From contig CAYFXU010000001.1 of assembly GCA_964347145.1 (NCBI GenBank), forward strand, positions 1 to 54,602: a stretch of DNA of 54,602 nucleotides, given 5' to 3'. Both the position numbers and the translations under genes were made by a program. Position 1 is the first letter of the stretch, and each line of letters starts with the position of its first letter. Positions 15,756-41,437 of the stretch are shown here, piece after piece. The notes beneath the pieces are model-generated. The model was not told where the DNA came from. It did not search any database and saw only the letters and a list, made by a program, of their open reading frames with translations. Source of the DNA: an uncultured Candidatus Bathyarchaeia archaeon (GTDB taxonomy: Archaea > Thermoproteota > Bathyarchaeia > Bathyarchaeales > Bathyarchaeaceae).

Positions 15756-15764
15756 GTCAATAAT

Positions 15765-19573: not shown

Positions 19574-19574
19574 T

Positions 19575-20441: not shown

Positions 20442-21022
20442 ATCACCTGAGTCTCTTTGAATAGCTTGTCTATCTCCTTGAGGTCTTTGACTTTTTTCGG
20501 AAACAGGCTTAGTTTTCTCTTGCGAACCATCTTTAATCCCAGTGGAAAATACGACAGCATGAACTTCAGGTCTTTCCTTTTCAGTATATATTTCGTCATC
20601 AGCCCAGTCTCGAATACTCTTCCGTAGTGTCTTATGCTGTCTGCGAAGGTTGAATCAAACAAGAACGTTGGGCCTTTGATCTCGATGTTTCCTTTTTCCA
20701 GTTCTCTTATTGCAAGAATCTTTAGTGCTTCAACAACCTCAGCAAACTTCACATTTTGAGGACACCGTTCATAGCAGGTGTGACAGTGTACGCACTTCCA
20801 TATGGTTTCACTGGAAAGTAGTTCTTTCTTCATCCCGTATAGAATCATTCTGATTATCTTTCTTGGGTTGTAATCATTGTCGATTCTCCTTACGGGGCAT
20901 GAAACTGCACAAATGCCACAGTGAAAACATTGCTTCACGTTCTCACCACCTGGTTGGCTAGAAACTTCATATTTGAAATTCGGATCGAGATCACCAAAAT
21001 CAACTGTCTGTTTCTTTTCCAT
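20438..21022 (-). CDS. hdrC: HdrC 2x[4Fe-4S] subunit
   Basis: CFHCGICAVSCP and CVHCHTCYERCP. ATG start 8 nt downstream of the conserved promoter/leader element. Confidence 0.9.
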   Translation of the reverse strand: MEKKQTVDFGDLDPNFKYEVSSQPGGENVKQCFHCGICAVSCPVRRIDNDYNPRKIIRMILYGMKKELLSSETIWKCVHCHTCYERCPQNVKFAEVVEALKILAIRELEKGNIEIKGPTFLFDSTFADSIRHYGRVFETGLMTKYILKRKDLKFMLSYFPLGLKMVRKRKLSLFPKKVKDLKEIDKLFKETQVM

Positions 21023-23327: not shown

Positions 23328-24284
23328 TCATAAGCCCGCCATGTAGCCACTGACAACGTATGCTATGCACAACAGTAGACCCGTGAACAGGTGCACGAGA
23401 ACCGTACCAGCATTCGCCGGAATAAGCTTTCGCGGATCTCCATAATTTCTCCTGGCCACATACACTGCTCTTATGGCCAGTGGAGCCGTTAGAAATGAAA
23501 GTAAAGTGAGCACCGGCATCAGCGACAAGGAGACCCCCAACAGTATTACAGCGTAGGTGAAAAACATGAGCAGGCCATAGACATCCGCAGCCCGTTTTCT
23601 TCCAATTCTAGTTACCAAAGTCTTTTTTCCAGCCTTGGCGTCTGCGTAATAATCTGGAATTTCGTTTATCCAGAGCACTTCGAGAATCAATATTCCTAGA
23701 GGAATTGATGCAACTATTGGTTCTAAAGCTATAATTTGTGTTTGCACATAATAGCTTCCTGCGACTGTGAGTGGTCCGCAGTTAAGACCTACAATGAACT
23801 CGCCAATCCCACGTGGGGCCAACTGAGTCGTATAGAAATATCCTGAAAAGACTCCTGTAAGGCCGAGAACGACAATAACCCACCCTCGAGTCACAGCAAG
23901 GATTACTCCAATAAGGCCAGCGAAAATGAAGGAAATTAGAGAAGCGATGTACACTTTTCTGGGATTTAGGATACCTCTAGGAAGTAAGCCACTTCCGCCA
24001 CTGAATGGTGAACTAAAATCGGTGTCGACGAAATCGCATCCACTCTTGTAGTCAAAATAATCATTTGCAAGATTTGTTCCAGCATTTACACACACCGCGC
24101 CTATCAAACTCAAGACGAAATACGTCAGGTTAAAAGTTCTGAACGAAAACCAAGCTACTGCGGTGCCGAGGATCACTGGAATCAAAACGGCTGTAAAAAA
24201 GGGTGCTCTCAACTCCTTAATCCATACCAGAAAGGTTGCTGTCTTGGTTTGAGTTTTCCCTGACAGTTTTCGTCCCTCTAACAT
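23328..24284 (-). CDS. menA: UbiA-superfamily prenyltransferase, MenA-like (1,4-dihydroxy-2-naphthoate polyprenyltransferase type)
   Basis: 318 aa, polytopic. First Asp-rich motif NLANDYFDYKSG and second motif NEIPDYYADAKAGKKTLVTRIG are characteristic of the MenA subgroup. Confidence 0.75.
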   Translation of the reverse strand: MLEGRKLSGKTQTKTATFLVWIKELRAPFFTAVLIPVILGTAVAWFSFRTFNLTYFVLSLIGAVCVNAGTNLANDYFDYKSGCDFVDTDFSSPFSGGSGLLPRGILNPRKVYIASLISFIFAGLIGVILAVTRGWVIVVLGLTGVFSGYFYTTQLAPRGIGEFIVGLNCGPLTVAGSYYVQTQIIALEPIVASIPLGILILEVLWINEIPDYYADAKAGKKTLVTRIGRKRAADVYGLLMFFTYAVILLGVSLSLMPVLTLLSFLTAPLAIRAVYVARRNYGDPRKLIPANAGTVLVHLFTGLLLCIAYVVSGYMAGL

Positions 24285-24632: not shown

Positions 24633-26525
24633 TTGAAGAAGTCCCGACTTTTGAATTTTCTCCTAATCGCATTGGCATTGTGTATGGGAATTGCCGCAGT
24701 GTTATACATGAAAACTCCGTCAGTAATAGCATGGCCAGATTTTGCCCAAGCCTGTAGCAGCTGTCATGATCTCGACGTTGGTGTCACAACCACTGCGAGT
24801 GTGTCAGAGTTGAGTTTGATGCCAGGTGAAACATCCCAAGCCTTTACAATAACGGTGAATGGAGCCGGATATCATCAAGGCCTCACTGGTTCTGCCCTTC
24901 GACTGCCTTTTGGCTGGACTGGTTCGGAAGATTATGCGTTTGGCAATTCAACAGAAACTGACGGAGAATGGTATTGGACGGAGACTCGCGAAGATCCAGA
25001 TCATATTGAAATGTTCACCGCCACAATAACGGTGCCTACCGATGCCACCGAGGGTGACTATACCATCGATGTGTGGGGAGCCGGAGACAACGTTGATGGC
25101 AATAAAGCGTCGGATTCGACGACGATCACAGTGACAGTCATCGTTGTTTCACCCCCTGTTGCTTCCTTCACTTTTTCACCTGAGTCTCCGATTGTGGATG
25201 AAGAAGTGACTTTCAACGCTTCTACTAGCCATGATGCTGACGGTACCATTGTAAGTTATGATTGGGATTTTGGTGATGGAACTACTGGTTCTGGAGTAAC
25301 TGTTGCTCATACATACACGGCTGACGGCAGCTACAGTGTTACATTAACCGTTACCGACAACGATGACCTATCAGACAGTGCTACTCAAGAAGTCACCGTG
25401 TCTACTCTCCAGCTTCAGCCTCCCGTTGCTTCCTTTACATTTGAACCTCAAACTCCAGTTGTGAATGAGACGGTGACATTCAACGCTACAGACAGCCATG
25501 ATCCAGATGGAACCATAATCAGCTACGATTGGGACTTCGGCGATGGCACAATCCTCAGCGAAATCAACCCAGTCGCAGCGCATGATTACGCAGTGGAAGG
25601 ATCATATCTCGTGAAACTCACCGTCGTGGATAATGATGCGCTGAACGACACAGACACAGCTTCTATAACTGTTTCATCGGCAATAGAACACGACATAAAG
25701 ATCACAAACGTCACAGCATTTCCGACAGAGGTAACGATTGGCGATTCATTGTCCATTAACGTCGATCTTGAAAATGAAGGCGATATGTCCGAGACCTTCA
25801 ACGTAACCTCATACTACGACACCACAGTGATCGAAACCAAAACCGTTACAGACTTGGCCTCACACAGCGAAGTAAGATTAAACTTCACATGGAATACTCT
25901 AGGAGTCTCTGAGGGAAACTACACAATAAAGGCCGTGGCAAGCACTGTTTCCGGGGAGACAGATACCGATGACAACTCATATATCGACGGCACAGTCAGC
26001 GTTACTTTCGCCCTAATTGGCAAGGCATCTGTGGATCTTGACCCGGATACGTTAAACCTTAAGAGCCATGGCAGATGGGTAAGTTGTTACATAGAGCTTC
26101 CTGAAGGCTATGATGTGGATGATGTTGACCGAGCAACGATACTGTTGAATGGAACCATTCCAGTTGATCCGTTCTGGGTTGATAAGCCCCTTGAATCTGT
26201 CGTTGGAGACCACGATAGTGACACAATTCTTGACTTGATGGTTAAGTTCAATAGAATGTCGGTAAGTGACTATCTTCTTGATCATAACGTAGCGTTTGGA
26301 AACGTGACTCTGACATTAACAATGCAACTCTACGATGGTACACCATTCGAAGGCAGCGACACAATCAAAGTGTTGCCGAAAGCAAGCCGAGTCTCTCTCA
26401 AAGGAGCGAAATCCTATGGACTTGTCCCTAACCCACTGATGTTCCTCTTTGCTGTAACCGTTCCAGTCGTTTTTGATAGAGCGAAGACAGTCAGGAAGAA
26501 TGTTTTCGCGGCGCGTCCATCATAG
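24633..26525 (+). CDS. Surface protein: signal/anchor, monohaem CxxCH + beta-sandwich module, 2x PKD, CARDB-like, Ig-like domain, C-terminal hydrophobic anchor
   Basis: N-terminal TM LLNFLLIALALCMGIAAVLYM; haem motif CSSCH. Two PKD repeats (VSYDWDFGDGT...YSVTLTVTDND; ISYDWDFGDGT...YLVKLTVVDND). CARDB-like INVDLENEGDMSETFNV. C-terminal PLMFLFAVTVPVVF. TTG start. Confidence 0.85.
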   Translation: MKKSRLLNFLLIALALCMGIAAVLYMKTPSVIAWPDFAQACSSCHDLDVGVTTTASVSELSLMPGETSQAFTITVNGAGYHQGLTGSALRLPFGWTGSEDYAFGNSTETDGEWYWTETREDPDHIEMFTATITVPTDATEGDYTIDVWGAGDNVDGNKASDSTTITVTVIVVSPPVASFTFSPESPIVDEEVTFNASTSHDADGTIVSYDWDFGDGTTGSGVTVAHTYTADGSYSVTLTVTDNDDLSDSATQEVTVSTLQLQPPVASFTFEPQTPVVNETVTFNATDSHDPDGTIISYDWDFGDGTILSEINPVAAHDYAVEGSYLVKLTVVDNDALNDTDTASITVSSAIEHDIKITNVTAFPTEVTIGDSLSINVDLENEGDMSETFNVTSYYDTTVIETKTVTDLASHSEVRLNFTWNTLGVSEGNYTIKAVASTVSGETDTDDNSYIDGTVSVTFALIGKASVDLDPDTLNLKSHGRWVSCYIELPEGYDVDDVDRATILLNGTIPVDPFWVDKPLESVVGDHDSDTILDLMVKFNRMSVSDYLLDHNVAFGNVTLTLTMQLYDGTPFEGSDTIKVLPKASRVSLKGAKSYGLVPNPLMFLFAVTVPVVFDRAKTVRKNVFAARPS

Positions 26526-26548
26526 AATTTCGTGTGCATGCGCCAAAG

Positions 26549-27220
26549 CTATACGCTTTTGCCGTAGTTTCCAGCGAGAGCAATAAAGTCGTCGTAGTCA
26601 ACGTCGCCGTCGGCGTCGAAGTCCGTGGCCTGAACAAAGGCTGGATCTCCGCTGCTAGATCCGTAGGCTCCAGCCAAAACTATAAAGTCGTCGTAGTCAA
26701 CATCTCGGTCGCCATCGCAATCACCAGGAACGCTCACAACTATAGTCAAAGAAGCCGTGTTCCAGAGGTCGTCCTGATCTTTTCTCCCATCACCATCACC
26801 TGAGAAGCCAGCAACATGCATAGTCACACTTCCATAAGTTGAAGGCGATGTCCAATCAAATGACCAGCTTATTTGCGACATTCCAGCGACGGTTTGTACG
26901 ATTTCTGTTTCCAGCAATTGAGTATTTGTTGAATCCGTAACGGCAAGCGTACCGTTGGTAATTGAAACATCCAAACCGTTAGCTGCTAGTGGCCCACCAC
27001 TCACAGTGACAGTGTAAGCATACGTCGTATCAGGTACTACAATAGTTCGCCCAGAGATTGTAACTCCTACGCTTGGGCTGAAATTTGAAGAGTGGCAGGT
27101 GCATCCGACCGTGGAGTACCCTGAGATTCCATCGCTCTTGGCTAGAATCGTAGTGGAAACTGCCATAAAAGATACAAAGAGAATAACAAATGCCGAAATT
27201 AAAGCTTCAAGTTTATTCAT
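26549..27220 (-). CDS. Secreted monohaem CxxCH + beta-sandwich module fused to a C-terminal double dockerin-like repeat
   Basis: Signal peptide ALISAFVILFVSFMAVS; haem motif GCTCHS. Two Ca-binding-type repeats: DCDGDRDVDYDDFIVLAGAYG and DADGDVDYDDFIALAGNYG. Confidence 0.8.
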   Translation of the reverse strand: MNKLEALISAFVILFVSFMAVSTTILAKSDGISGYSTVGCTCHSSNFSPSVGVTISGRTIVVPDTTYAYTVTVSGGPLAANGLDVSITNGTLAVTDSTNTQLLETEIVQTVAGMSQISWSFDWTSPSTYGSVTMHVAGFSGDGDGRKDQDDLWNTASLTIVVSVPGDCDGDRDVDYDDFIVLAGAYGSSSGDPAFVQATDFDADGDVDYDDFIALAGNYGKSV

Positions 27221-27456
27221 TTTTCTCCCTCAGCAAATTAGTATGATTGTTATGACACTTATAAACATTAAGCTTGTCCCTTTCTAGGCACGCATGTGTG
27301 CAGCCGTTTTTCTTGCCAGTTGGTTTGGCTTGTCTATCAAGCTTTTGTGGGTACTTTGAAGATTTTGGGATCTTCGTTCTTCTATTCTTTTCAGTTTCAT
27401 TCTTTGCAAGAACGAGAATTTCAAGACCGCCGATAGAACTAGTTAGACGGAGTCAC

Positions 27457-28143
27457 CTACTCTTCTAACACAAATTTGAAAGTCAAATTCGCCACGGCTA
27501 CAACAGAAAGCAGAAAGGCAAGGAGTAATCTTAATTCCGACATTACGTCTACTGAAGCGGCACTGTTTATGATTTTGACGGTCGCCAGAACCGACGGAAT
27601 AAGCACGGGGACGCAAACGGGAAAAAGTATAAAGGATAGAAGGAGCGTTTTTCCCTCTGAAAACATAACGAGACCGGAAACAAAGGAACCAGCTATTGAC
27701 AGATCAGTAACCCCGAGTATTAAGATAAGCAGAAAATCCAAAAGTCCTCCAGGGATCTTGAGATTCAAGAATACAAAAGAGAAGGGAAGCATCACTCCTT
27801 CCACAAGGAGAAGTAGCACCATAGCGTAGAGGATCTTTCCAAAAAGTATTGATGCCGGTGAGCATGGGAGGGTTTTGAGGCCTCCAAGAGTTCCTCGATC
27901 CATCTCTCTAGTGAAAGACGTCGTGAAGGTTAAAACGCTGGCGAAGAAAAGGATTATCCACAAAGCTGCTGAAGTCACCTCTGGACTAGCAGTTATGGCA
28001 CCACCCCAAGCAAAACTGCAAATGAGAATTGAACTCACTGAAAAGGTTAGAATAGATAGGATTTCATAGGCTCTCTTGAACTCCACCGCAAGATCTTTTG
28101 CAGCTATTCTAAAAGCCGCTGAGAAAAAACCCATGAGTGTCAC
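27457..28143 (-). CDS. ccmB: Haem exporter permease CcmB
   Basis: 228 aa with 6 hydrophobic helices. GTG start forms a GTGA overlap with the ccmA stop. Sits in the expected ccmAB position. Confidence 0.85.
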   Translation of the reverse strand: MTLMGFFSAAFRIAAKDLAVEFKRAYEILSILTFSVSSILICSFAWGGAITASPEVTSAALWIILFFASVLTFTTSFTREMDRGTLGGLKTLPCSPASILFGKILYAMVLLLLVEGVMLPFSFVFLNLKIPGGLLDFLLILILGVTDLSIAGSFVSGLVMFSEGKTLLLSFILFPVCVPVLIPSVLATVKIINSAASVDVMSELRLLLAFLLSVVAVANLTFKFVLEE

Positions 28144-28781
28144 CTGAAAAAGGTGTCTTGAACCAGTTTTCCTTTTTCAAGAAAAAGGCTCCTTTTGCAG
28201 AGTTGTTTTGCCCATTCAACTGAGTGGGATGACACTAACAGAGTTTTTCCTTTTAGAGTCTTGAGGTAACTCACTAAAAAGTTTCGGGTTTCTTCATCCA
28301 ATCCAGCGAAAAGTTCGTCAAGCAAAATTAGGTCTGGGTTATGAATTAATGCCCTGGCTATGTCTGCCCTTTTCCTCAAACCATACGACAATTGCTTCAC
28401 GGGAACCTTGCGCCAACTCTTCAAATTTAAGAAGTCAATTAATTCCGGGTCGTCTTGGTCCACAGAGAAAAGCCTTCCGTAAAACCGCAAATTTTCTTCG
28501 ACACTGAGTTCGTCATAGAGAAAACTTTCGTGAGCCACGAAGCCTATTCGCTTTCTCACAATCTCACCGTCCTTAAAGGCATTCCGCCCGTGAATCTTTA
28601 CTACGCCAGATGATGGAAGAACGTGCGTAGCTAGGATCCTCATCAACGTTGACTTTCCCGCTCCGTTAGGACCCAAGACAGCTACGGATTCGCCTTCATC
28701 GATTTCAATTGTGAACGGCTTCAGGGCCCATATATAACCGTACTTTTTTGAGACATTGAGAATTTCAACAGCGACAGTTAT
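28140..28781 (-). CDS. ccmA: ABC ATPase CcmA; the start is probably a non-canonical AUA
   Basis: Walker A GPNGAGKST, signature LSYGLRKR, Walker B LILLDE. The track ORF starts inside Walker A at a TTG. The in-frame upstream sequence ITVAVEILNVSKKYGYIWALKPFTIEIDEGESVAV is the conserved ABC N-terminus. It contains no ATG/GTG/TTG. GGAGG-N8-ATA is present at 28794..28779. Confidence 0.8.
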   Translation of the reverse strand: MTVAVEILNVSKKYGYIWALKPFTIEIDEGESVAVLGPNGAGKSTLMRILATHVLPSSGVVKIHGRNAFKDGEIVRKRIGFVAHESFLYDELSVEENLRFYGRLFSVDQDDPELIDFLNLKSWRKVPVKQLSYGLRKRADIARALIHNPDLILLDELFAGLDEETRNFLVSYLKTLKGKTLLVSSHSVEWAKQLCKRSLFLEKGKLVQDTFFR

Positions 28782-28813
28782 TGTCCCGTCCTCCTCGTCT
28801 ATGTGATTCGACT

Positions 28814-29296
28814 TTATTCATGCTTTCTTTTCAAGGTCATGGACACAACTGTGCCGACAATCGCTCCAGTTCCCAACAGGATGGCTGCCATAAACATGGG
28901 GTCGCCAAGCAACGATTTTCCTTCTCCCTCGTATTTGGAAGGGCATTTAACAAGCATATCGTATCCCTCAATGGTGCCTCGAGAAACGAGTTTTCCAATT
29001 ACAACGACCTGTTCGGCTTCTTGGAAGTTATCAGGCGGGCTTCCCGTGTAATTCACTTTGATCGCAGATTCTTCGTCAATGAGGTTGAAAACCATAGAGC
29101 GGTTTTTGCGGGAGACGGATCCGTTGGAAATTGTCCCCAACACTTGGATGTCTTCGTTGAGGTAAGTCGAGCTGTTTCTCACCACCTGAGACACCGTCAA
29201 GTAGGGGTTGATGTATGAAGAAAAGGCGTCGTATGCCAGTACACCACTGAGAACGATAAGAACGATGACGATGATGTAGGTGTACTTGATCTTGAT
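28814..29296 (-). CDS. ccmE: Haem chaperone CcmE, archaeal Cys variant; the start is probably a non-canonical AUC
   Basis: OB-fold region with CPSKY (28931..28945) in place of HxxxY. The required N-terminal TM anchor YTYIIVIVLIVLSGVLAY is in frame upstream of the track start. No canonical start codon precedes it. GGAGG-N8-ATC is present at 29309..29294. Confidence 0.8.
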   Translation of the reverse strand: MKIKYTYIIVIVLIVLSGVLAYDAFSSYINPYLTVSQVVRNSSTYLNEDIQVLGTISNGSVSRKNRSMVFNLIDEESAIKVNYTGSPPDNFQEAEQVVVIGKLVSRGTIEGYDMLVKCPSKYEGEGKSLLGDPMFMAAILLGTGAIVGTVVSMTLKRKHE

Positions 29297-29297
29297 C

Positions 29298-29426
29298 TCA
29301 AGTGCCTCCTTTTTCCAGGTCCACCAACCTTTTCCTGAGGTCAGAGAGTCGTCTGGTGAGCCAGATAGAAACGATTAAAATGGATCCCCAATAGATTGCT
29401 GAGACAAGGAAAAGCTCAAACTCCAA
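29298..29426 (-). CDS. ccmD: CcmD-like small membrane protein (not in ORF track)
   Basis: 42 codons, translated by hand: MEFELFLVSAIYWGSILIVSIWLTRRLSDLRKRLVDLEKGGT. One TM followed by a basic tail. TTG start preceded by GGAGG-N8. Lies exactly between ccmC and ccmE. Confidence 0.6.
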   Translation of the reverse strand: MEFELFLVSAIYWGSILIVSIWLTRRLSDLRKRLVDLEKGGT

Positions 29427-29430
29427 CCTT

Positions 29431-30111
29431 TCACCCTCCTCTTTCGTAGGCTAAGACATCAACTCGTTTTTGAAGAGACCGAACATCATGAGTCATCCTT
29501 AACAGATATATGTAAACGAGAGAACTCGCGATGAGATTTAAAAGTAGTGTTTCCATCATCGGCGGAGTTATTGAAAGGTCCAGGCTCAATCCTCCAGTTA
29601 CAGGAAGAGGATGAAGCGACTGCCAAAGTCTAATGGACAAATAGCTCAGTGGAATCGTGGAGAAGGCAAGAACATTATATACTGCACTAGTTAACGCCCG
29701 CTTTTCAACGTTTCCGATAGAGAGTCGCAGGGAAACATAGCCCATGTAGGCTATCCACAAGATAAGCGTGGTTGTCTCCCGCGGATCCCAATTCCAGTAC
29801 ACTCCCCAAGCAACGTTTGCCCAAATGGAACCCGTTATCAACGCCACGACTCCGTACAAAAGCCCCAAAATGGCTGAAACTTCCGCCAAACTGTCATATG
29901 CGATTTTTCTTTTGACCAAAAACAATATGCTTGCCAGCAATGAAACGCCCAGTGTGAGATAACAGACCCAAGCGGCGGGTGTGTGAATGTAGAAGATTCG
30001 ATAAAGATCTCCCATAGTCTTCTCTGGAGGAGCAGCAACAAAAGCAGCGTAACTCGCAATAATGTTTACGACCACGGTAATAGAAAGGTAAATATAATCC
30101 CGGATTATCAT
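29431..30111 (-). CDS. ccmC: Haem lyase/exporter subunit CcmC
   Basis: Trp-rich WWD motif WGVYWNWDPRETTTLILW. 226 aa, polytopic. Confidence 0.9.
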   Translation of the reverse strand: MIIRDYIYLSITVVVNIIASYAAFVAAPPEKTMGDLYRIFYIHTPAAWVCYLTLGVSLLASILFLVKRKIAYDSLAEVSAILGLLYGVVALITGSIWANVAWGVYWNWDPRETTTLILWIAYMGYVSLRLSIGNVEKRALTSAVYNVLAFSTIPLSYLSIRLWQSLHPLPVTGGLSLDLSITPPMMETLLLNLIASSLVYIYLLRMTHDVRSLQKRVDVLAYERGG

Positions 30112-30214
30112 TAACCTCTCCTCGCTTCACAGAAATATTCCAATCATAACTATAAAAAGTTTAAAAACAACTTGACGGATTGCAAGGCAACTCGATCGTT
30201 TGAGGGAAACCAGG

Positions 30215-32176
30215 ATGGAAACCGAAGAACTGTTCCTAGTCTTCGCTTGCCTTCTACTATTCTTCGACTTGATTCAATCGTCAAAGGTCAAGCCCCGTGA
30301 GAGGAAGAAACTTGAATACGGATTCTATGCGTCAATTCTAGCATGTGGGCTTATCGTCGCCTCGTATTTAATGCTTTTGCAGGCCTTCTTGAAGGACGAT
30401 TTTACATTAAGAGTAGTCTACTCGTATAGTTCGTCGAGCTTGCCGACCTCCTTCAAGGTTTATGCCACGTGGGCTGGCATGAGCGGTTCAATGCTCTTCT
30501 TGACGTTTCTTATGACCATCGTATACTTTGCCTACAGGTTCAAGACGTATGAGGAAAGCGGTTCTTTTCGATTAATCGCCTACAGGATACTGGATTTCAT
30601 TCTCATCTTTTTCTTGCTCCTCACCTTGATAAACAGTCCGTTTGAACGATTTCAGGGAGCGCCAATGGATGGCCAGGGTCTTAATCCCTTGTTGCAAACC
30701 TTCTGGATGTTTATCCATCCACCTGTAGTATTCTCGGGTTACGTCCTTGTCACTCTTGCATTTGCTCTGGTTCTGGCGAGAATGAAGACTGGAGAAAAAG
30801 TGGAAGGTACGTTGCTAAAGCTTTCTCTCCAAGGAGCGTGGTTGCTCTTGACTCTTGGAAACGCCATTGGAGGTTTGTGGGCTTATGAGGTGTTGGGTTG
30901 GGGCGGATACTGGGCTTGGGACCCAGTTGAAACCGCGTCGCTATTGCCGTGGTTGGCTCTCACGGCGTATTTTCACCTTGGTCCAGTCTCCAAAAAGGGT
31001 AAAAGCCTAGCGGGTGAATTCATGATTCTTTTAACTTTTGCAACTGTGATTTTCACCACTGCTTTGACTCGAGGCGGGTTGGCCGTGTCGGTTCACGCGT
31101 TCGGAGCCTCGCCCCTTGGACCGGCTCTCCTTCTTCTGACTCTCGTCATGATTGTCTATTTCTTCTATTTAAAGAGAGGAATAGAGAAGCCGCTATTTTC
31201 TTTAGAGGTTGAAAAATCTTCCCTTTACTCGGTGTCTTTTTTCGCAGGGTATTGGTCTTTAATCTTTGTTTTCCTCATTTGTTTCTGGGGGGTAGCCTTC
31301 CCAGTTATTGGGGGAATCTTTCTGGAAAATCCTATGGCCACTGGCATGGACTTCTATAACAACTGGAATTTTCCCTTTGTATTGGTCTTTGTTGCAGCGT
31401 TGGTTGGCTGCAGCATGTACGAGAGAATAGGTTTCAAGGAGTTTGCGATACTACTGGCCGGTGCGTTGGGCGCCGGCGCCGTATTAGTTCAGATGCAGTG
31501 GCCAACACCCCATATATTGGCGAATCTAGGGATTCCACTTTTGATTGTTTCGCTGTTTGCTGTAGTATACCGGCTTGTTCAGGTTCTTGGGAGGAAGAAA
31601 AGATCTCTTCGTCTGTTCGGGAGAAGTCTTCTCCACTTTGCGATCATAATCACGTTGATAGGTGTCTTCTTCAGCTCCACCGCCAAGCTTGTAAGCGGCG
31701 ATCTTCCGGCGAAACCAAACACCACCATAGAAACGTTAGGGCTAACAATAGAGTTGAAGAACTTCACCGTTCACAACGGCACTGGAAACGTTCACTCCAT
31801 GGATTTCGGACGGTGCATCCCAGAACATTCAGCGTTGAAAATGGATGTCACAATTAAACAGGCAGGAAACATCTACCATGGAGCTCTGTGGATTCGCTAT
31901 TACCCCGTTTATGGAATCGTATCTGGACCGTCGATAATTGGCACTTCGACAGGAGATATATACATTCGCATGCATCACACAGAATCAATGTATAACTCGC
32001 TGGTGCAAGCTCTTGGTGGTGAGAAAGTTCTTCCTGAGGATTTGGTGGTCAGCGTGGAGAGGATTCCCATGGTTCATCTTGTTTGGGCCGGAGTAACACT
32101 GCTTAGCATCGGGATGGCTATGCCATTGATTAAGGAGATCGTGAGACCGATGCCCAAAAAAGCTAGCAGTGATTGA
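30215..32176 (+). CDS. ccmF: Cytochrome c haem lyase CcmF
   Basis: WWD motif GGLWAYEVLGWGGYWAWDPVETASLLPW. About 650 aa, polytopic. I prefer ATG 30215 (GAGGGA 7 nt upstream) over the track TTG at 30200. Confidence 0.9.
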   Translation: METEELFLVFACLLLFFDLIQSSKVKPRERKKLEYGFYASILACGLIVASYLMLLQAFLKDDFTLRVVYSYSSSSLPTSFKVYATWAGMSGSMLFLTFLMTIVYFAYRFKTYEESGSFRLIAYRILDFILIFFLLLTLINSPFERFQGAPMDGQGLNPLLQTFWMFIHPPVVFSGYVLVTLAFALVLARMKTGEKVEGTLLKLSLQGAWLLLTLGNAIGGLWAYEVLGWGGYWAWDPVETASLLPWLALTAYFHLGPVSKKGKSLAGEFMILLTFATVIFTTALTRGGLAVSVHAFGASPLGPALLLLTLVMIVYFFYLKRGIEKPLFSLEVEKSSLYSVSFFAGYWSLIFVFLICFWGVAFPVIGGIFLENPMATGMDFYNNWNFPFVLVFVAALVGCSMYERIGFKEFAILLAGALGAGAVLVQMQWPTPHILANLGIPLLIVSLFAVVYRLVQVLGRKKRSLRLFGRSLLHFAIIITLIGVFFSSTAKLVSGDLPAKPNTTIETLGLTIELKNFTVHNGTGNVHSMDFGRCIPEHSALKMDVTIKQAGNIYHGALWIRYYPVYGIVSGPSIIGTSTGDIYIRMHHTESMYNSLVQALGGEKVLPEDLVVSVERIPMVHLVWAGVTLLSIGMAMPLIKEIVRPMPKKASSD

Positions 32177-32225
32177 AAGTCACTAATGCTTCTACATTAG
32201 ATGCGGTCGTCCTGTCGAAAAACAA

Positions 32226-32239
32226 ATGATTATTATCAT
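32226..32239. promoter_or_regulatory. Inverted repeat ATGAT-TATT-ATCAT, 8 nt upstream of a TTTAAATA box (32248-32255) of the octahaem cytochrome gene
   Basis: Read directly from the sequence. The geometry (IR, then TATA, then about 59 nt to the ATG) matches the site upstream of hdrA-mvhD. Confidence 0.4.
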
Positions 32240-32306
32240 AAGTAAGATTTAAATATCCTGAATTAGAATAAACGTTATTCTCTAGGGCAGGCTGAGGGGA
32301 GATCAG

Positions 32307-33809
32307 ATGAAAAAAGGCAAGAAGACGCAGTTATTTCTATTCATGATCGTAATTCTTGTAGGAATGTCACTATCGTTCTCAAGGTACAAGACATCCGCCG
32401 TCAATGGAGGTTCCGAATACGTAGGTGCTGAATCGTGCGCGGCATGCCACCCCAACGTTTATGAAGGTTGGAATCAGACCAACCACGCCTATGCGGTTAG
32501 GCTCATCCAAAACGCATCAGGTAACTTCTATAGTGTTGGCTCAACCAGTAATAGAGCAGGGACGCCCAGTCGAGTATATAATGAAACACGTTTTAGGGAT
32601 TCATGCCGCAACTGCCATGTTACTGGGGGAAATGATTTTGATCCATTGGGAGCAGCCAATCAGTCATGGCCTGAGATGACCACTGACCCAGAGAAATTCC
32701 TGAACATACAATGCGAAGTGTGTCACGGACCGCATCAGGAAGGACATTCAAGTCCGGATGTCCAAATGGTTCTCGATTACTCTGCAACGCTTTGTGAACT
32801 ATGTCATGTCCCCGGATCTTCCCACGACAATTCCTATTGGCAGAGTGCACATGCCCAGAGCTTAACTGATCTTCTAGATTCAGGTCATGCAGCTGACTAT
32901 TGCCTTAGCTGTATGACAGCTCAAGGTTCTCTAGGAAAGGACATATCTCTAAACACCACGAATCTGGAGAGTGTTTCATGTGTCACTTGTCATGACCCCC
33001 ACAGTCATACATATGACGCTCAACTTAGATACGAAGAATCAACAGAACTGTGTGGTCAGTGTCACTCTCAGGCTGAAGTCTTCGAAAACAGTGCACACTC
33101 TATGGCAGGATTGGAATGTACAAGCTGTCATGGCCAGGGTACACATTTTGGCCACGGTGCTGTAAGCCCCATGATTAATCACACTTGGGGGGTATACGGA
33201 ATGTACTATCCCTATAACCAAACAACCGCTGAAGAACCAATTGTATGCTCAACATGTCACACTCAATCCTGGGCTACGTCGCAACTAGGGGTAATTCAGG
33301 GGTTGACAACAGAACTCGTAACCAACGTTACTCAGGCCATCGACAACGCGAAGGCTACTCTCACTATTGCAAACCAAACAAGCGGAGTGAACCAAACAGA
33401 AATCAATCAATTACTGGCCATGGTTGAAGTGGCGGAGGACCACATCCACGACGTGGAAAGAGATAGCAGCGAAGGTTTCCACAATCCAGAACAAACCTTC
33501 GCAATTCTGAGCGCAGCGGCACACCTAGCAAGTGAAGCAGAATCTACGGCGCTAGAAGCCAGAGCCGCCGCTTTAGCCAGCGAAGCAACAACACTTGGAA
33601 CTCAAGTTTCGAGTCTTCAAAACCAAGTCACATCACTTCAAAATCAAACATCCACGCTTCAATCGGATATCGAAGGTTTGGAAGAAAAAATCGGTGGCCT
33701 GGAATCAGCGGCAGAAACAGTTCCTTATCTATACGGAGGATTGGGCCTAGCCATAGGCTTCATCGTCGGAGCGGCAATCGTATTCCTTGTTCGACGAGGG
33801 AAACCATAA
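32307..33809 (+). CDS. Membrane-anchored octahaem cytochrome c
   Basis: Eight CxxCH motifs (CAACH, CRNCH, CEVCH, CELCH, CVTCH, CGQCH, CTSCH, CSTCH) plus one CLSCM. N-terminal signal/TM. C-terminal heptad-like region (LQNQVTSLQNQTSTLQSDIEGLEEKIGGLE). TM anchor GLGLAIGFIVGAAIVFLV followed by RRGKP. Confidence 0.9.
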   Translation: MKKGKKTQLFLFMIVILVGMSLSFSRYKTSAVNGGSEYVGAESCAACHPNVYEGWNQTNHAYAVRLIQNASGNFYSVGSTSNRAGTPSRVYNETRFRDSCRNCHVTGGNDFDPLGAANQSWPEMTTDPEKFLNIQCEVCHGPHQEGHSSPDVQMVLDYSATLCELCHVPGSSHDNSYWQSAHAQSLTDLLDSGHAADYCLSCMTAQGSLGKDISLNTTNLESVSCVTCHDPHSHTYDAQLRYEESTELCGQCHSQAEVFENSAHSMAGLECTSCHGQGTHFGHGAVSPMINHTWGVYGMYYPYNQTTAEEPIVCSTCHTQSWATSQLGVIQGLTTELVTNVTQAIDNAKATLTIANQTSGVNQTEINQLLAMVEVAEDHIHDVERDSSEGFHNPEQTFAILSAAAHLASEAESTALEARAAALASEATTLGTQVSSLQNQVTSLQNQTSTLQSDIEGLEEKIGGLESAAETVPYLYGGLGLAIGFIVGAAIVFLVRRGKP

Positions 33810-33877
33810 AAGTTATAGTCCTTTCTCCCCTTCCTATTTTCAAAGAATTGAAACAGTGCGTGCGGTGAAAGACTGAG

Positions 33878-34714
33878 ATGGTCACCAAAAAGGGGTTAAT
33901 CATTCTCGGAATCCTCTTAGCACTTAGCTTCTCACTGACTCTAACCGCGTCTCTCTATGCAACGCCGCAGTTCGGGGAGGATTGTCTATCTTGTCATACG
34001 GGAGGCGGAATATCAGTCACCTCAAATGTTACTGACACTGTGGAAGTTAACGCTTCAAGGTCGTTCGGAGTGCAGGTTGACGCGGAGGGGGACTCGCAAG
34101 AACTCACTGTGATATGGTCAGATGTTGCCAACAATCCCATCTTCGCTTTCACACCGTCCAAGGTCATTGACAACGACCTCAACGACAACGATCCAACGGT
34201 AAGCAAGGTGAGGAGCATTTTTAACATCATTGCACCAGCAGTTCAGGGAGAATATACGGTACAGGTTTTCGCGGCAGGTGGCGGAGGAAAAGGTGGGACA
34301 CTTACCTTTCAGGTGACCGTTACAACTGAAGAACCTGGCATCGAAAACCTGTTGCCTAATGCATATTTTCTTCACACTAGGCGTGGCATGACAATAGAAT
34401 TCGTAGATCGATCTTGGGATGCGGATGGCAACATTACCTCTTGGCTTTGGGACTTCGGAGACAACACCAATTCAACAGAGCAAAACCCAACCCACACATT
34501 CACAGAAATTGGCACATACACTGTAACGCTCACCGTTACCGACGACAAAGAAGGCAGCGACATTCAATCTCAAACATTTCGAGTTCCTTCGAAAGAAGAA
34601 CTCTTCCGGCTCTGGACATTACAAGTCGCTATCGGATCCTTAATGATAATCTTAACTTTGCTTTTTGCCATTGGGATAGCCAGCGCTCGCTTCAAGAGAG
34701 GGAAGCAAAGTTGA
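33878..34714 (+). CDS. Monohaem CxxCH + beta-sandwich module, PKD domain, C-terminal TM anchor
   Basis: Signal peptide LIILGILLALSFSL; haem motif CLSCH; PKD repeat ITSWLWDFGDNT...YTVTLTVTDDKEG; TM anchor LQVAIGSLMIILTLLFAIGIA. Confidence 0.85.
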   Translation: MVTKKGLIILGILLALSFSLTLTASLYATPQFGEDCLSCHTGGGISVTSNVTDTVEVNASRSFGVQVDAEGDSQELTVIWSDVANNPIFAFTPSKVIDNDLNDNDPTVSKVRSIFNIIAPAVQGEYTVQVFAAGGGGKGGTLTFQVTVTTEEPGIENLLPNAYFLHTRRGMTIEFVDRSWDADGNITSWLWDFGDNTNSTEQNPTHTFTEIGTYTVTLTVTDDKEGSDIQSQTFRVPSKEELFRLWTLQVAIGSLMIILTLLFAIGIASARFKRGKQS

Positions 34715-34777
34715 ATAAGACTAGAAGAGTGAATCTAAAGGAAGTCATGTTCATTGTGACTATTGGAGGGTGTAAAA

Positions 34778-35422
34778 GTGGTTGATCTCGGAGCCCTACA
34801 CTCTATGCTAATAGAAATGCACGGAGGAATGCTCACACTGGCAGCTGTCAGCACTCTTGCAATGGTTGTAGCCCGACTTCACCGAAGGTTAAGAAGAACC
34901 AGCAAATGGTACGGCGTTTTTTGGCCTTTAGATTCGTTGATCGAGAAATTAGCCCGATACACAGAACCGACAGCCTATGTGGCGGCAATAGGCGGAGTTG
35001 TCGGCCTTGTGGTGTCTGCAATCGTTGGTTTTTATGTCTGGCCTACTGAAACTCTCATGAACTCTTCTCTGGGATTAACCAAAGTCATGTTCTCCATTTT
35101 CGCCACAGAACTTTGGATCCTCTTCGTTGTAATTAGATCAAAATATAGCGAAGACTTGTGGAAAAATGGTGCATTAGCGACCGTATACGTGTTCGCAGGA
35201 TTTGCTGGGTTCTTTTTCACGGTTCTAACAGGAAGCTTTGGGGGGCACATGGCAGGTAAAGGAAGTGTCCTTGATCCGGTTTATGAGCTTCTTAACGTAG
35301 ATCCAGAAGCTTTTTGGGTCATTGGGTTTGACATGGTGCCCGTGCTAATCGCCGTTGCCTTCATTGAGATAGTCATCTTTTTCGCTCTCTTCCTACGTTT
35401 TCGATCGCGAGCGAGAGCTTGA
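34778..35422 (+). CDS. Five-TM membrane protein, DUF2231-like
   Basis: GTG start preceded by GGAGG-N8. His-containing first helix region (ALHSMLIEMHGGML) and GSFGGHMAGKG loop resemble DUF2231 proteins. The assignment is by eye only. Confidence 0.6.
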   Translation: MVDLGALHSMLIEMHGGMLTLAAVSTLAMVVARLHRRLRRTSKWYGVFWPLDSLIEKLARYTEPTAYVAAIGGVVGLVVSAIVGFYVWPTETLMNSSLGLTKVMFSIFATELWILFVVIRSKYSEDLWKNGALATVYVFAGFAGFFFTVLTGSFGGHMAGKGSVLDPVYELLNVDPEAFWVIGFDMVPVLIAVAFIEIVIFFALFLRFRSRARA

Positions 35423-35901
35423 AAAACCCGTGGTGCCTGAACTTGACGGGGATTTTTGGAACGCGAGCTTCAATCTATTCGGATCTAGGCTTGGTTCTAG
35501 AGATATTGACCACGTTGCTCTTCACAATCGGGTATTTCTATGAAAAGAGAAAAGGAAGACATTGCGTCGTAATGGGCGCTGCTGTGACAACAAACATTGT
35601 TTTTGTGATCAGCTACATGGTGAGTAGGTTGGTCAAGGAGGAGGTCCCCTCTCCGCCGTCACAGTTCGCTACTCTCTATCGAGGGGTCGTCGTCCCCCAT
35701 GGGATCCTTTCGGTTTTAGTCCTTGTCCTAGCGATTTCTCAGGCTTTCCTTGCATATCAATGGCGGAAAAAGAAGAATGATGTCGTTGCGTTAGGGAAAA
35801 GAAGGCCCACCCACAGAAAACTTGGTCTCACAACTCTTATTTTGTGGTACATCAGCTTCCTGAGCGGAACAATCGTATACGCGATACTATATGTCTTGTA
35901 G
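35419..35901 (+). CDS. DUF420-like four-TM membrane protein
   Basis: C-terminal HRKLGLTTLILWYISFLSGTIVYAILYV resembles the DUF420 signature. Start overlaps the upstream stop (CTTGA). Confidence 0.55.
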   Translation: MKNPWCLNLTGIFGTRASIYSDLGLVLEILTTLLFTIGYFYEKRKGRHCVVMGAAVTTNIVFVISYMVSRLVKEEVPSPPSQFATLYRGVVVPHGILSVLVLVLAISQAFLAYQWRKKKNDVVALGKRRPTHRKLGLTTLILWYISFLSGTIVYAILYVL

Positions 35902-36931: not shown

Positions 36932-37954
36932 TCAACCGTTTGACTTCTGCGCAGACACTCCATTTAGTCTGAGGGTTTTTGCCATTTGAGCAAGATGCGA
37001 CTTGAATTTGGTGTCTTTGAGGGGCTGAATATCAACGATTGATTTGTCAACGTATTTGTTTATTTTCTTTCTGCAATAACCAAGAGAGTCATTGGTTTTT
37101 AGCTTCTCCAAAATCATGTTTAGGGCACTCTTCTTAGAAGTCTTGTTTTTACTTGACAAGATTTGAAGGTTCTGGAGAAGCCTTTCTCTTTCGTCCAAGC
37201 TGACTGACCTAAAAAGATGGATCAGGGGAAGGCTAATTCGGCGTTTTCTAAGATCTTTTGGAATGCCATCTCTCAAAGAGGTTATGTCTGAAAGGTCATC
37301 GCTTAGTTGGTAAGCCATTCCGAAATGTTCTCCAAAATTTGCCAGGCAACTAACTTCAAGGTCAGAGCCACCTCCTGCTATGGCTCCACAAATAGTTGCA
37401 GCTTGAAATAGTGAGGCAGACTTCTTTCTTATTTTCTCTAGATATTCCTTTTCAGACATCTCAGTCGATTTTATTGACACATCCATGTATTCGCCATCAC
37501 AAAGCGCTAGACCAGTTTCTGATGCGATTTTCAGTATTTCTTTACCATAATCGGCTGTCAAGAGAATTGCGAGGGATATCATGGCGTCTCCGACTAGAAT
37601 GGCCTCATTTACAGACCATTTTTCATGAACCGAAGGGACATCGCGTCTAAACTTGTCTTGGTCTAGAATGTCGTCGTGGACAAGAGTTGCGGTGTGTAAT
37701 AGTTCAACGGCTAGAGCCAACGGCATGACGTCTTCTCGGTTTCCTCCAACGCTTTCGGCACTGAGTATGACCATTAAAGGCCTTAATCTCTTTCCATGGG
37801 ATAGCAAGGCATAACCTATTTTCTCATAAAGTCGCAGGTCGGAAATTCTTGAAATAAGGCTTGAAAGTTCAGATTCTACTGAATGTCTCGTGCTTTCTAT
37901 GTACGACTGAAACTTCTTTTCATACGGTGCAACAAAGGCCCTAGTGACTGGCAT
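36932..37954 (-). CDS. trans-Polyprenyl diphosphate synthase (chain length not assignable)
   Basis: First Asp-rich motif LVHDDILDQD and second motif DDLSD. 340 aa. Confidence 0.9.
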   Translation of the reverse strand: MPVTRAFVAPYEKKFQSYIESTRHSVESELSSLISRISDLRLYEKIGYALLSHGKRLRPLMVILSAESVGGNREDVMPLALAVELLHTATLVHDDILDQDKFRRDVPSVHEKWSVNEAILVGDAMISLAILLTADYGKEILKIASETGLALCDGEYMDVSIKSTEMSEKEYLEKIRKKSASLFQAATICGAIAGGGSDLEVSCLANFGEHFGMAYQLSDDLSDITSLRDGIPKDLRKRRISLPLIHLFRSVSLDERERLLQNLQILSSKNKTSKKSALNMILEKLKTNDSLGYCRKKINKYVDKSIVDIQPLKDTKFKSHLAQMAKTLRLNGVSAQKSNG

Positions 37955-41424: not shown

Positions 41425-41437
41425 TCCTTCACCATTT

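Follow-up and report, generated by a model that had tools for sequence, protein, structure and literature searches.

Three secreted proteins of a Bathyarchaeia archaeon share a predicted beta-sandwich head beside a cytochrome c maturation locus

Three genes lying around a complete cytochrome c maturation (Ccm) locus in an uncultured Bathyarchaeia archaeon, here termed A, B, and C, encode proteins with what profile comparisons indicate to be one shared N-terminal head, modelled as a small beta-sandwich with a Cys-His dyad on a short arm. Most probably A and C are monohaem c-type cytochromes, a prediction that rests on their CxxCH motifs and on the maturation genes adjoining them and their relatives; B carries the same type of head, though with a non-standard haem motif, on a dockerin. 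Together, these proteins suggest an extracellular electron-transfer apparatus of modular build, with three tethers, one of which is a dockerin. We lean towards the proposal as a whole, that is, paralogous heads, monohaem A and C, a surface electron path, and a B protein hung by its dockerin.

Results

The locus and its maturation genes

The window (the whole stretch of DNA analysed, 54,602 nucleotides) was re-read for the three open reading frames, all of which lie exactly where the earlier note had placed them. That note gave a strand for none of the three, and B is on the minus strand. The features of the locus are as follows.

Gene A: 24633..26525, plus strand, 630 aa; signal peptide, CSSCH head, two PKD domains, CARDB, beta domain, C-terminal transmembrane (TM) anchor
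Gene B: 26549..27220, minus strand, 223 aa; signal peptide, CTCH head (choice-of-anchor V domain), C-terminal dockerin by profile match
ccm block (ccmC/ccmE/ccmA/ccmB): 27457..30111, minus strand
ccmB: 27457..28143, minus strand; Pfam CcmB 5.5e-20
ccmA: 28140..28676, minus strand; Pfam ABC_tran 1.1e-24
ccmE: 28814..29200, minus strand; Cys-type KCPSKY, Pfam CcmE 8.7e-22
ccmC: 29431..30111, minus strand; Pfam Cytochrom_C_asm 2.2e-31
ccmF (haem lyase): 30200..32176, plus strand; Pfam Cytochrom_C_asm 4.5e-26
Octahaem c-type cytochrome: 32307..33809, plus strand; eight CxxCH, Pfam Cytochrome_C554 1.3e-14 and Cytochrom_C552 1.4e-08
Gene C: 33878..34714, plus strand, 278 aa; signal peptide, CLSCH head, PKD domain, TM anchor
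Polytopic membrane protein: 34763..35422, plus strand, 219 aa; identified by hydropathy
DUF420 membrane protein: 35419..35901, plus strand; Pfam DUF420 1.5e-16

The genes ccmA, ccmB, ccmC, ccmE, and ccmF are all located between B and C, so that a cytochrome c maturation system is present in the same genome, and the set adjoining A, B, and C is complete (ccmABCEF, archaeal-type, with a Cys-type CcmE). Matches of ccmE to the NCBIfam CcmE models, and of ccmF to the NrfE/CcmF-family models (best 2.7e-60), were under the cut-offs of those models. B shares the strand of ccmB and begins 236 bp downstream of it. Additionally, the window holds 13 CxxCH motifs where 0.35 are expected, ten of them within 24.7-34.0 kb (eight in the multihaem cytochrome and one each in A and C), and the only secreted proteins in the window with such a motif are A, C, and the octahaem cytochrome.

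The domain layouts previously described for the three proteins hold, based on Pfam matches and hydropathy. Specifically, two PKD domains (PKD_4, 4e-40, 136 bits) and a CARDB domain (2.1e-08, 34.7 bits) of A scored above their cut-offs, hydrophobic segments were found in a hydropathy scan at residues 3-32 and 595-615, the latter being the C-terminal helix, and the beta-rich residues 450-596 matched nothing by sequence in Pfam or the PDB. In C, a single PKD domain (PKD_4, 3.4e-19, 69 bits, above cut-off) is accompanied by a TM helix at residues 242-273 by hydropathy, a layout common to 24 orthologues.

C also belongs to a conserved module comprising the octahaem cytochrome, C itself, the polytopic membrane protein, and the DUF420 protein, which is kept at 60-62% identity, whether or not DUF420 is included. 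The octahaem cytochrome, which combines a coiled-coil stalk with a signal or anchor at its N-terminus and a TM anchor at its C-terminus, is retained directly upstream of C in neighbourhoods L021, L022, and L023; L024 has a related cytochrome, but at another position. The polytopic membrane protein and DUF420, the frames of which overlap by 4 bases, are retained downstream of C in L001 and L023, and the polytopic protein is present without DUF420 in L021 and L022.

One head on several anchors

The heads occupy the following regions.

Head of A: 24732..25151 (residues ~34-173), plus strand; CSSCH at 24753..24767
Head of B: 26729..27139 (residues ~28-164), minus strand; C-T-C-H at 27092..27103
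Head of C: 33962..34342 (residues ~29-155), plus strand; CLSCH at 33983..33997

Using hhalign, head A was aligned to the C-family profile with a probability of 97.3% (E 2.1e-11, 129 columns), and the B family to the 108-sequence A/C-type family with a probability of 97% (E 1.3e-10, 114 columns), the latter alignment spanning the Cys-His through the last strand. Moreover, a family HMM built from 110 outside relatives only recovered the whole head of each protein, at 4.8e-22 for A (residues 25-173), 7.7e-45 for C, and 7.7e-07 for B (residues 37-164). Both comparisons sustain the earlier proposal of a head shared by the three reading frames and, judged by these profiles, the homology extends past the motif in all three proteins.

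The earlier note had not recognised the head as a named family, but it is one: B clearly belongs to NCBIfam NF041895, choice-of-anchor V (1.2e-32, 113.1 bits, cut-off 42). The same region matched this model under the cut-off in A (1.8e-4, 21.6 bits) and C (2.9e-3, 17.7 bits), and weakly in 10 of the 110 relatives of A and C, while P0004, a B orthologue that has CxxCH, scored 120 bits, above B itself. These matches indicate that the superfamily of the A, B, and C heads takes in the NCBIfam choice-of-anchor V domain. Clustering at 50% identity divides the A/C-type relatives alone into at least 110 clusters, from both archaea and bacteria.

Recombination of one head with different spacers and anchors, also claimed beforehand, was evident in the layouts of A, B, and C, in the anchor swap within the B family, for which orthologues have either a dockerin or a C-terminal membrane anchor resembling, by eye, a PEF-CTERM sorting signal, and in a collagen-like stalk elsewhere. 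One head on varied anchors is exactly what the name choice-of-anchor describes. Hence NF041895 (considered with NF041894, MXAN_6652 family) resembles the heads herein both in the whole-head match of B and in having one N-terminal domain joined to alternative C-terminal anchors; it differs in that A and C fall under its cut-off and make up a larger clade of their own with links to ccm genes, and in that B is anchored by a dockerin and has a CxCH motif. Our literature search returned no paper on, or stated function for, the NF041895 family.

A predicted Ig-like sandwich with a Cys-His arm

The head of C, modelled with AlphaFold2 from a 108-sequence alignment, formed a beta-sandwich (pLDDT 91.2, pTM 0.83) with the motif on a short N-terminal arm. 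On this model the head is an Ig-like beta-sandwich of ~110 residues, preceded by the arm that carries the Cys-His dyad. Its structure matches were to generic Ig-like folds only, with TM-scores of 0.59 or lower, and none was to a haem-protein fold. The dyad is kept in 98-99% of the 110 cluster representatives, and nothing else in the arm is conserved; the first cysteine is absent in 18% of family members and the spacing between cysteines ranges from 1 to 5 residues. One family member has CACM in place of the motif.

Of the single CxxCH attributed earlier to each head, those of A (CSSCH) and C (CLSCH) are present and conform to the haem c attachment motif, and that of B does not: its translation reads G-C-T-C-H, a CxCH with one residue between the cysteines. 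To our knowledge, haem attachment to CxCH has never been demonstrated. In the alignment, eight of nine B-family members have CxCH, and only P0004 has CGQCH. The motif is located 8 residues (A and C) or 13 residues (B) past an Ala-ended (-3,-1)-type cleavage site, and the N-terminal hydrophobic segments stop upstream of it in all three proteins. Because it lies beyond both the hydrophobic core and the cleavage site, sequence and hydropathy scan place the motif outside the signal peptide, and the earlier concern that it might be buried there is answered in the negative.

No conserved distal (sixth) ligand, whether Met, His, or Lys, was found in the 110 relatives, and the head of C has zero Met and no second His. 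Since some c-type cytochromes have no protein sixth ligand, the missing ligand does not exclude membership. Cytochrome f and the Cyc2-type fused cytochrome-porins have a single CxxCH near the mature N-terminus followed by an all-beta body, as do the A/C heads; neither matched the heads by sequence or fold, and the small Ig-like sandwich that forms the beta body of the present heads is neither the large domain of cytochrome f nor a porin barrel.

Gene neighbourhoods and the case for haem

A/C-type heads repeatedly adjoin cytochrome c maturation genes in several lineages, with System I in archaeal relatives and System II in one bacterial member, which is beside ResB and CcsA as well as a NiFe hydrogenase. 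In a distant lineage, three head paralogues with different stalks, including one head on a collagen-like stalk, are directly beside ccmCEAB, ccmF, and multihaem cytochromes. Additionally, heads are fused within the same polypeptide to a NiFe-hydrogenase small-subunit-like domain in four members and to DUF420 in two. The 11.8-kb contig of one family member has no maturation genes. Adjacency to two maturation systems supports covalent haem for A and C, such that the earlier description of the head as haem-binding is upheld for the A/C type; it is not for B, given its CxCH and its orthologues, which are not near ccm.

We consider it unlikely that the heads are instead surface adhesins or envelope components in which the Cys-His dyad, with its optional second Cys, is a metal site or structural staple, and for which the ccm adjacency is meaningless. 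Such proteins would accommodate the variation in the motif (CxCH, single Cys, CACM), the non-conserved distal ligand, the generic Ig-like fold matches, and the fused PKD, CARDB, other Ig-like domains, and collagen-like stalk, all typical of adhesins. They would also suit the surroundings of the B orthologues, which are away from ccm (no ccm genes are near P0004 and P0006) and by an exosortase-family gene and sorting-signal proteins. However, the sole invariant pair, an adjacent Cys and His, is the minimal haem c signature (CxxCH; Euglenozoan single-Cys cytochromes), and haem c also occurs naturally at Cx3CH and Cx4CH. Further, System I and System II genes adjoin heads in unrelated lineages, and C is always paired with a multihaem cytochrome (L021, L022, L023).

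Less likely again, and improbable in our view, is that the heads bind haem but use it in ligand binding or catalysis, for instance to sense or detoxify small molecules or to handle haem or iron, as an open five-coordinate surface haem and not an electron relay. The lack of a conserved sixth ligand, together with a C head without Met or a second His, makes a His-only five-coordinate haem plausible. Nevertheless, both the conserved operon with the octahaem cytochrome and membrane proteins and the fusion to a hydrogenase small-subunit-like domain fit electron transfer better, and the sixth ligand could be the free N-terminus or come from a partner protein.

The dockerin of B

The C-terminal module of B is as follows.

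Dockerin of B: 26552..26728 (residues 165-223), minus strand; two DxDxDxDVDYDD loops, helix after each

The loops, DCDGDRDVDYDD and DFDADGDVDYDD, start 33 residues apart, and the low-confidence structure model of B (pLDDT 45) has helices at residues 176-184 and 209-219, themselves of low confidence. Against Pfam Dockerin_1 (PF00404), B scored 15.5 bits (E 0.02), under the gathering cut-off of 22.9, with a similar score for EF-hand_7 on the same C-terminus (E 0.034); orthologue P0006 has a precomputed PF00404 match, and P0013 scored 20.9 bits. A profile built from 21 C-terminal modules of the B type matched the solved dockerin 2y3n_B over its full length (E 5.2e-13, 59 residues, positions 2-60), followed by other dockerins (3.8e-05 to 1.4e-04) and, more weakly, calmodulins (6e-04 or worse), the best of which was nine orders of magnitude behind 2y3n_B. 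This ranking corroborates the earlier dockerin reading of the repeats and, at the level of profiles, identifies the C-terminus of B as a genuine dockerin.

The B-type dockerin is a mobile module that tags the C-termini of many unrelated proteins, among them cohesin, CARDB, and PF05048 (which we take to be NosD-like) proteins, and was found in 0 of the 110 A/C-type relatives. In sister metagenomes, proteins with dockerins 78-83% identical to that of B carry cohesins above the Pfam gathering score. The cohesin proteins recovered, sampled among proteins sharing the dockerin of B, each have one cohesin and one dockerin, and no multi-cohesin scaffoldin was seen in that sample. Within the window our search found no cohesin, in agreement with the earlier remark that no partner was obvious there. 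The description of B as a dockerin on a cytochrome is not borne out, since the sole head that bears a dockerin has CxCH in place of CxxCH, and hence no established haem c site. The least likely alternative, that the repeats of B are generic EF-hand-like calcium loops stabilising a protein with no cohesin partner, would suit the sub-threshold Dockerin_1 score, the similar EF-hand_7 score, and the window without a cohesin, but is very improbable given the match to 2y3n_B, the repeat spacing and helix behind each loop, which suit a dockerin, and the C-terminal tagging of unrelated proteins, Pfam-positive cohesin proteins among them.

Discussion

In the proposal that we favour, head homology, fold, domain layouts, dockerin identity, and gene neighbourhoods are documented above, whereas the attachment of haem, the transfer of electrons, a cohesin as partner, and any haem binding at the CxCH of B are inferred. 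A, B, and C would be paralogues of one extracytoplasmic module, in which an unstructured arm begins straight after the signal-peptide cleavage site and bears the nearly invariant Cys-His dyad, mostly in CxxCH form. The neighbouring Ccm system (ccmABCEF) would attach haem to the arm of A and C, with the arm His as proximal ligand and the haem packing against the sandwich. C-terminal TM helices would hold A and C at the outer membrane face, and the spacers between head and membrane would be one PKD domain in C and two PKD, CARDB, and one further beta domain in A; since these lengths differ, we propose that the haems stand at different heights above the membrane. C would partner with the upstream octahaem cytochrome and the downstream ~215-aa polytopic protein and DUF420, the cytochrome, C, and the two membrane proteins forming an electron path from membrane to surface. 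B would be the same head with a dockerin replacing the membrane anchor, hung non-covalently on single-cohesin, single-dockerin proteins encoded by related Bathyarchaeia.

More tentatively, the heads might represent a widespread class of c-type cytochromes that has gone unrecognised, with a beta-sandwich fold and a haem site reduced to the Cys-His dyad on a floppy N-terminal arm. Such a class would have one or two thioether bonds, a Cys spacing of 1-5 that includes natural CxCH, and maturation by Systems I and II, and one Bathyarchaeia branch would be carried on cohesin-dockerin chains, forming a modular redox surface outside the cell.

In Kletzin et al. (2015, PMC4429474), Igni_0579 and Igni_1052 of Ignicoccus hospitalis are predicted monohaem cytochromes c, their models based on the reelin-N domain of F-spondin and their haem predicted but not demonstrated. 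Compared by description, they resemble the present proteins in being archaeal, with an N-terminal hydrophobic segment, a CxxCH at about residue 28, a beta-sandwich body, and, in some, a C-terminal TM helix; they differ in that the heads here had no Pfam Reeler match, and no spondin was among the top 50 fold matches listed. For B, the closest parallels are the non-cellulosome cohesin-dockerin pairs summarised by Chadwick et al. (2022, PMC9012536) for Archaeoglobus fulgidus and ANME archaea. These likewise involve surface proteins with a C-terminal two-repeat calcium-binding dockerin, cohesin partners, and no link to cellulose breakdown. In contrast, the cargo here is a haem-motif head near ccm genes, and the B-lineage cohesin proteins combine one cohesin with one dockerin. 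A cellulosome-like scaffold, which is defined by a scaffoldin with several cohesins, was not found among the proteins sharing the dockerin of B.

With its dockerin tag, B would add a possible carrier of a redox cofactor to the enzymes and binding proteins assembled by cohesin-dockerin pairing, and the choice-of-anchor V link suggests a function for a family with none assigned so far as we found. Should haem prove to be present on members with CxCH or a single Cys, the accepted substrate rules of the maturation systems would have to be widened; should it prove absent, the family would offer a natural series in which to study how a haem site is lost. Bathyarchaeia are among the most abundant archaea of anoxic sediments and peat, and the disposal of their electrons is a standing question. 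The window would give this group a concrete and testable outline of an extracellular electron-transfer apparatus, in which the complete Ccm system is joined by an octahaem cytochrome anchored in the membrane and by as many as three monohaem modules on the surface, on tethers of differing length.

Three related heads around a cytochrome c maturation gene set

All three ORFs (A, B, and C) to which the earlier note had assigned a shared N-terminal head, comprising a CxxCH motif and a beta-sandwich, are present in the window, alongside genes for cytochrome c maturation (ccm) and an octahaem cytochrome.

Features of the window around the three head ORFs (coordinates, strand or placement, description)
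24633..26525, + strand: A, ORF of 630 aa
26549..27220, - strand: B, ORF of 223 aa
between B and C, - strand: ccmB, ccmA, ccmE, ccmC (Pfam and NCBIfam)
between B and C, + strand: ccmF (Pfam and NCBIfam)
32307..33809, after ccmF: octahaem cytochrome with eight CxxCH, a coiled-coil region, and hydrophobic N- and C-terminal segments
33878..34714, + strand: C, ORF of 278 aa
34763..35901, downstream of C: polytopic membrane protein (219 aa) and DUF420 protein, reading frames overlapping by 4 bases

B follows ccmB downstream, 236 bp away and on the same strand, and is convergent with A. In A, the signal peptide and head are followed by two PKD domains, CARDB, an unassigned beta region (approximately residues 455-590), and a C-terminal hydrophobic helix, while in C a single PKD domain and a TM helix come after the signal peptide and head. 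The beta-rich domain of A at residues 450-596 (25980..26420), which contains DLDPDTLNLKSHGRWVSCYIELPEGYDV, had no Pfam, NCBIfam, or PDB sequence match.

Bacterial CcmE has a haem-binding histidine at the position where the window CcmE (28814..29200, - strand) has the cysteine of its KCPSKY motif. Such a cysteine-type CcmE has been described as an archaeal variant (Allen et al. 2006, as cited in PMC4429474). No CcmH-like protein was noted among the window ORFs scanned, and the window ccm set is an archaeal variant of System I. The 219-aa membrane protein matched no Pfam family; together with the DUF420 protein it may form the membrane entry point of an electron path.

Elsewhere in the window are genes for HdrA/MvhD-like, HdrBC-like, FrhB-like, and beta-oxidation proteins. 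Two gene sets contain Hdr proteins: the first (12666..21022) encodes two very long HdrA-like proteins (1029 and 1008 aa) that enclose an MvhD/FlpD protein, together with HdrB/C-like proteins of the CCG and ferredoxin kinds, and the second (38843..43843) an HdrA-MvhD fusion with CCG, ferredoxin, and FrhB-like proteins. At two homologous loci outside the window, L021 and L023, the cytochrome module likewise has genes of this sort on its flanks. On either side of the cytochrome cluster are a UbiA-family prenyltransferase (23328..24284, - strand) and a polyprenyl synthase (36932..37954, - strand), a bracketing repeated in L021 and L023 that may be linked to a membrane quinone or haem-modifying function.

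Homology and fold of the heads

Pairwise BLASTP of the heads was marginal and too weak to decide relatedness (A-C, 1e-5; A-B, 1e-3, largely from the signal peptide; B-C, without significance), and hhalign with shallow alignments recovered for B nothing beyond the signal peptide and motif, so that deeper profiles were required. Compared with a 24-sequence C family, A gave a probability of 97.3% (E 2.1e-11, 129 columns). Searching 1.84 billion cluster representatives with a profile of A and C-family heads brought up 136 proteins, most of the matches beginning at about residue 25-35, directly after an N-terminal hydrophobic segment. When an HMM was built exclusively from 110 outside relatives, it matched the whole head of A (4.8e-22), C (7.7e-45), and B (7.7e-07), as well as B orthologues at up to 2e-10. 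Likewise, the B family aligned by hhalign to a 108-sequence alignment of the larger family around A and C (A/C-type) at 97% (E 1.3e-10), in 114 columns that span the head from Cys-His through the final strand. On these profile comparisons, the heads are distant homologues, with A and C the closer pair. The earlier claim of mutual similarity beyond the motif is thus borne out by hhalign and the relatives HMM, not by pairwise BLASTP.

The earlier note had not recognised the head as a named family. It is not unnamed, since B lies within a curated NCBIfam family, choice-of-anchor V (NF041895; 113 bits, cut-off 42). Run in this reverse direction, the model also matches A and C, as well as 10 of the 110 relatives, weakly and in the same region. 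Separately, a word-based protein search with the A head (24633..25163) returned zero matches, A itself included, from a database in which the exact sequence of C is present.

The C head was modelled by AlphaFold2 with the 108-sequence alignment (pLDDT 91.2, pTM 0.83) and is predicted to be a nine-strand beta-sandwich, with the CxxCH on a non-regular N-terminal arm (pLDDT 49 over its initial ten residues and 81 over the following ten). Foldseek matched it in the PDB to generic Ig-like folds only (complement MG domains, PapD-like/ASH, and MSP; query TM-score <= 0.59), without a haem protein among the matches, and head sequence profiles found no solved relative among PDB chains.

The putative haem motif and its variants

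The first reading had given CxxCH to all three heads; the motif of B is in fact G-C-T-C-H, with one residue between the cysteines. CxCH occurs in eight of nine B-family sequences, the exception being P0004 (CGQCH), which scores slightly higher than B against the choice-of-anchor V model.

Several observations favour a haem site. The window contains 13 CxxCH motifs where 0.35 would be expected, and A and C are its only exported single-CxxCH proteins. Across the 110 representatives the Cys-His pair is kept in 98-99% and is the sole conserved feature of the N-terminal arm. Against haem stand the variability of the motif (Cx2CH in 52, single Cys-His in 20, Cx1CH in 18, Cx4CH in 12, Cx5CH in three, Cx3CH in two, no Cys in two, and CACM in one), the lack of a conserved distal ligand among these representatives, and a C head with neither Met nor a second His. 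Among the variants, Cx3CH and Cx4CH count as natural haem sites, and Euglenozoa have known single-Cys sites; CxCH, to our knowledge, is not among the established ones, and a literature search on experimental haem attachment to CxCH found no paper using that term.

Gene neighbourhoods and fusions count in favour of haem. A module of octahaem cytochrome, C, and a membrane protein of about 215 aa, with or without DUF420, recurs at 60-62% identity, both with and without intervening ccm genes; the membrane protein and DUF420 are paired in L001 and L023, while L021 and L022 have the membrane protein without DUF420. In a distant lineage (L024 and L025), three heads adjoin ccmCEAB, ccmF, and multihaem cytochromes: the first has CRSCH and a collagen-like Gly-Pro stalk, the second resembles A and has CARDB, and the third resembles C and has PKD. 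A bacterial member adjoins a NiFe hydrogenase together with ResB and CcsA, which are System II maturation genes unrelated to System I. Finally, four members carry a NiFe-hydrogenase small-subunit-like domain in the same polypeptide as the head and a TM helix, and two members match DUF420. Taking both sides together, we consider covalent haem on A and C probable, while for B the odds appear evenly balanced.

The L024 protein with CRSCH (8998..9690) has a TM anchor and a collagen-like stalk of Gly-Pro-X type, PPGPQGPPGEQGPAGPAGPQGPPGP, and lies directly downstream of ccmB, the position of B in the window. In the hydrogenase-like fusions (P0091, P0130, P0172, and P0189), the head motif is of the CxCH type (CYCH or CSCH) and a second Ig-like domain is present; the domain beyond the TM helix is Oxidored_q6/VhuG-like and contains a GCPP motif. 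P0130 is entered in one source as 'coenzyme F420-reducing hydrogenase gamma subunit'. The two head-family members that match Pfam DUF420 do so in the same polypeptide, and were not picked up by phmmer with the window DUF420.

No ccm genes were found beside the B orthologues P0004 and P0006. Three genes adjoin P0006 (L005, 30..4392): the first encodes a CARDB protein whose dockerin differs in type from that of B (Pfam Dockerin_1, 34.7 bits); the second, a membrane protein of the exosortase/archaeosortase family (PF09721, 1.6e-14); and the third, a small protein with IPEFPGF and a hydrophobic tail at its C-terminus, a PEF-like signal.

A dockerin on B and candidate cohesin partners

B terminates in a module (residues 165-223) with two loops, DCDGDRDVDYDD and DFDADGDVDYDD, that start 33 residues apart. 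A short helix follows each, with helices predicted at 176-184 and 209-219 in a low-confidence model; AlphaFold2 of full-length B (nine sequences, pLDDT 45) was set aside for fold claims. B matched no Pfam family at E 0.01, and at looser thresholds its C-terminus matched Dockerin_1 (E 0.02; 15.5 bits, below the cut-off of 22.9) and EF-hand_7 (E 0.034). The same module of about 60 residues is C-terminal in at least 30 other proteins (54-83% identity), among them Pfam-positive cohesin proteins, CARDB proteins, and one protein with PF05048, which we take to be NosD-like. A profile of 21 modules matched the solved dockerin 2y3n_B at E 5.2e-13 (positions 2-60) and five further dockerins at 3.8e-05 to 1.4e-04, compared with 6.3e-04 for the best calmodulin. 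Because dockerins outscore calmodulin, the profiles identify the module as a dockerin rather than a generic EF-hand, as the earlier note had suspected. A local search found no B-type dockerin among the 110 A/C-type relatives. In the B orthologues P0007 and P0008 the dockerin is replaced by '...PVPEFP...' and a hydrophobic tail, together resembling a PEF-CTERM sorting signal.

A cohesin had been called not obvious in the window, and none was found there. The beta-rich domain of A was rejected as the missing cohesin, since it had no Pfam or PDB sequence match and did not resemble the lineage's cohesins. Elsewhere, five of the proteins with the B-type module exceeded the Pfam cohesin cut-off of 24.1 bits (P0018, 37.5; P0015, 29.7; P0029, 27.7; P0014, 26.0; P0013, 24.3). 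P0002, a 98%-identical copy of B, is in assembly GCA_012974925.1, and cohesin-dockerin proteins occur in its sister assemblies GCA_012975005.1, GCA_012974965.1, and GCA_012974985.1. The last, where a homologue of C (P0043) is also present, has one contig-borne protein in common with run ERR2564001, which contains window-identical contigs, as does run ERR2564004. Through this tie, a candidate cohesin partner exists in the sample series and lineage to which the window belongs. The cohesin proteins recovered included no multi-cohesin scaffoldin, and a dockerin-profile scan of the genome collection matched only two archaeal loci, with the window's genome not among them.

Relation to known systems and a proposed arrangement

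Choice-of-anchor V is the nearest curated family to the heads; literature searches on 'choice-of-anchor V' and MXAN_6652 found no paper. The nearest published idea concerns Igni_0579 and Igni_1052, predicted monohaem 'CxxCH plus beta-sandwich' proteins that are still hypothetical and were modelled on a beta fold differing from that of the heads (PMC4429474). Cohesin-dockerin pairs are known in archaea, with many in ANME genomes, and their cargo has been described mainly as solute-binding and S-layer proteins (PMC9012536).

In the arrangement we propose, A and C would first cross the membrane, and Ccm would then attach haem to their N-terminal arms. The conserved core, carrying electrons between membrane and cell surface, would consist of C together with the octahaem cytochrome and both membrane proteins, and A would add an accessory head on a longer stalk. 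The head of B, which may or may not still carry haem, would be tethered via its dockerin to cohesin-dockerin proteins that could chain head to tail. What makes these heads notable is their superfamily link, the plasticity of their motif, and the dockerin-tagged branch.
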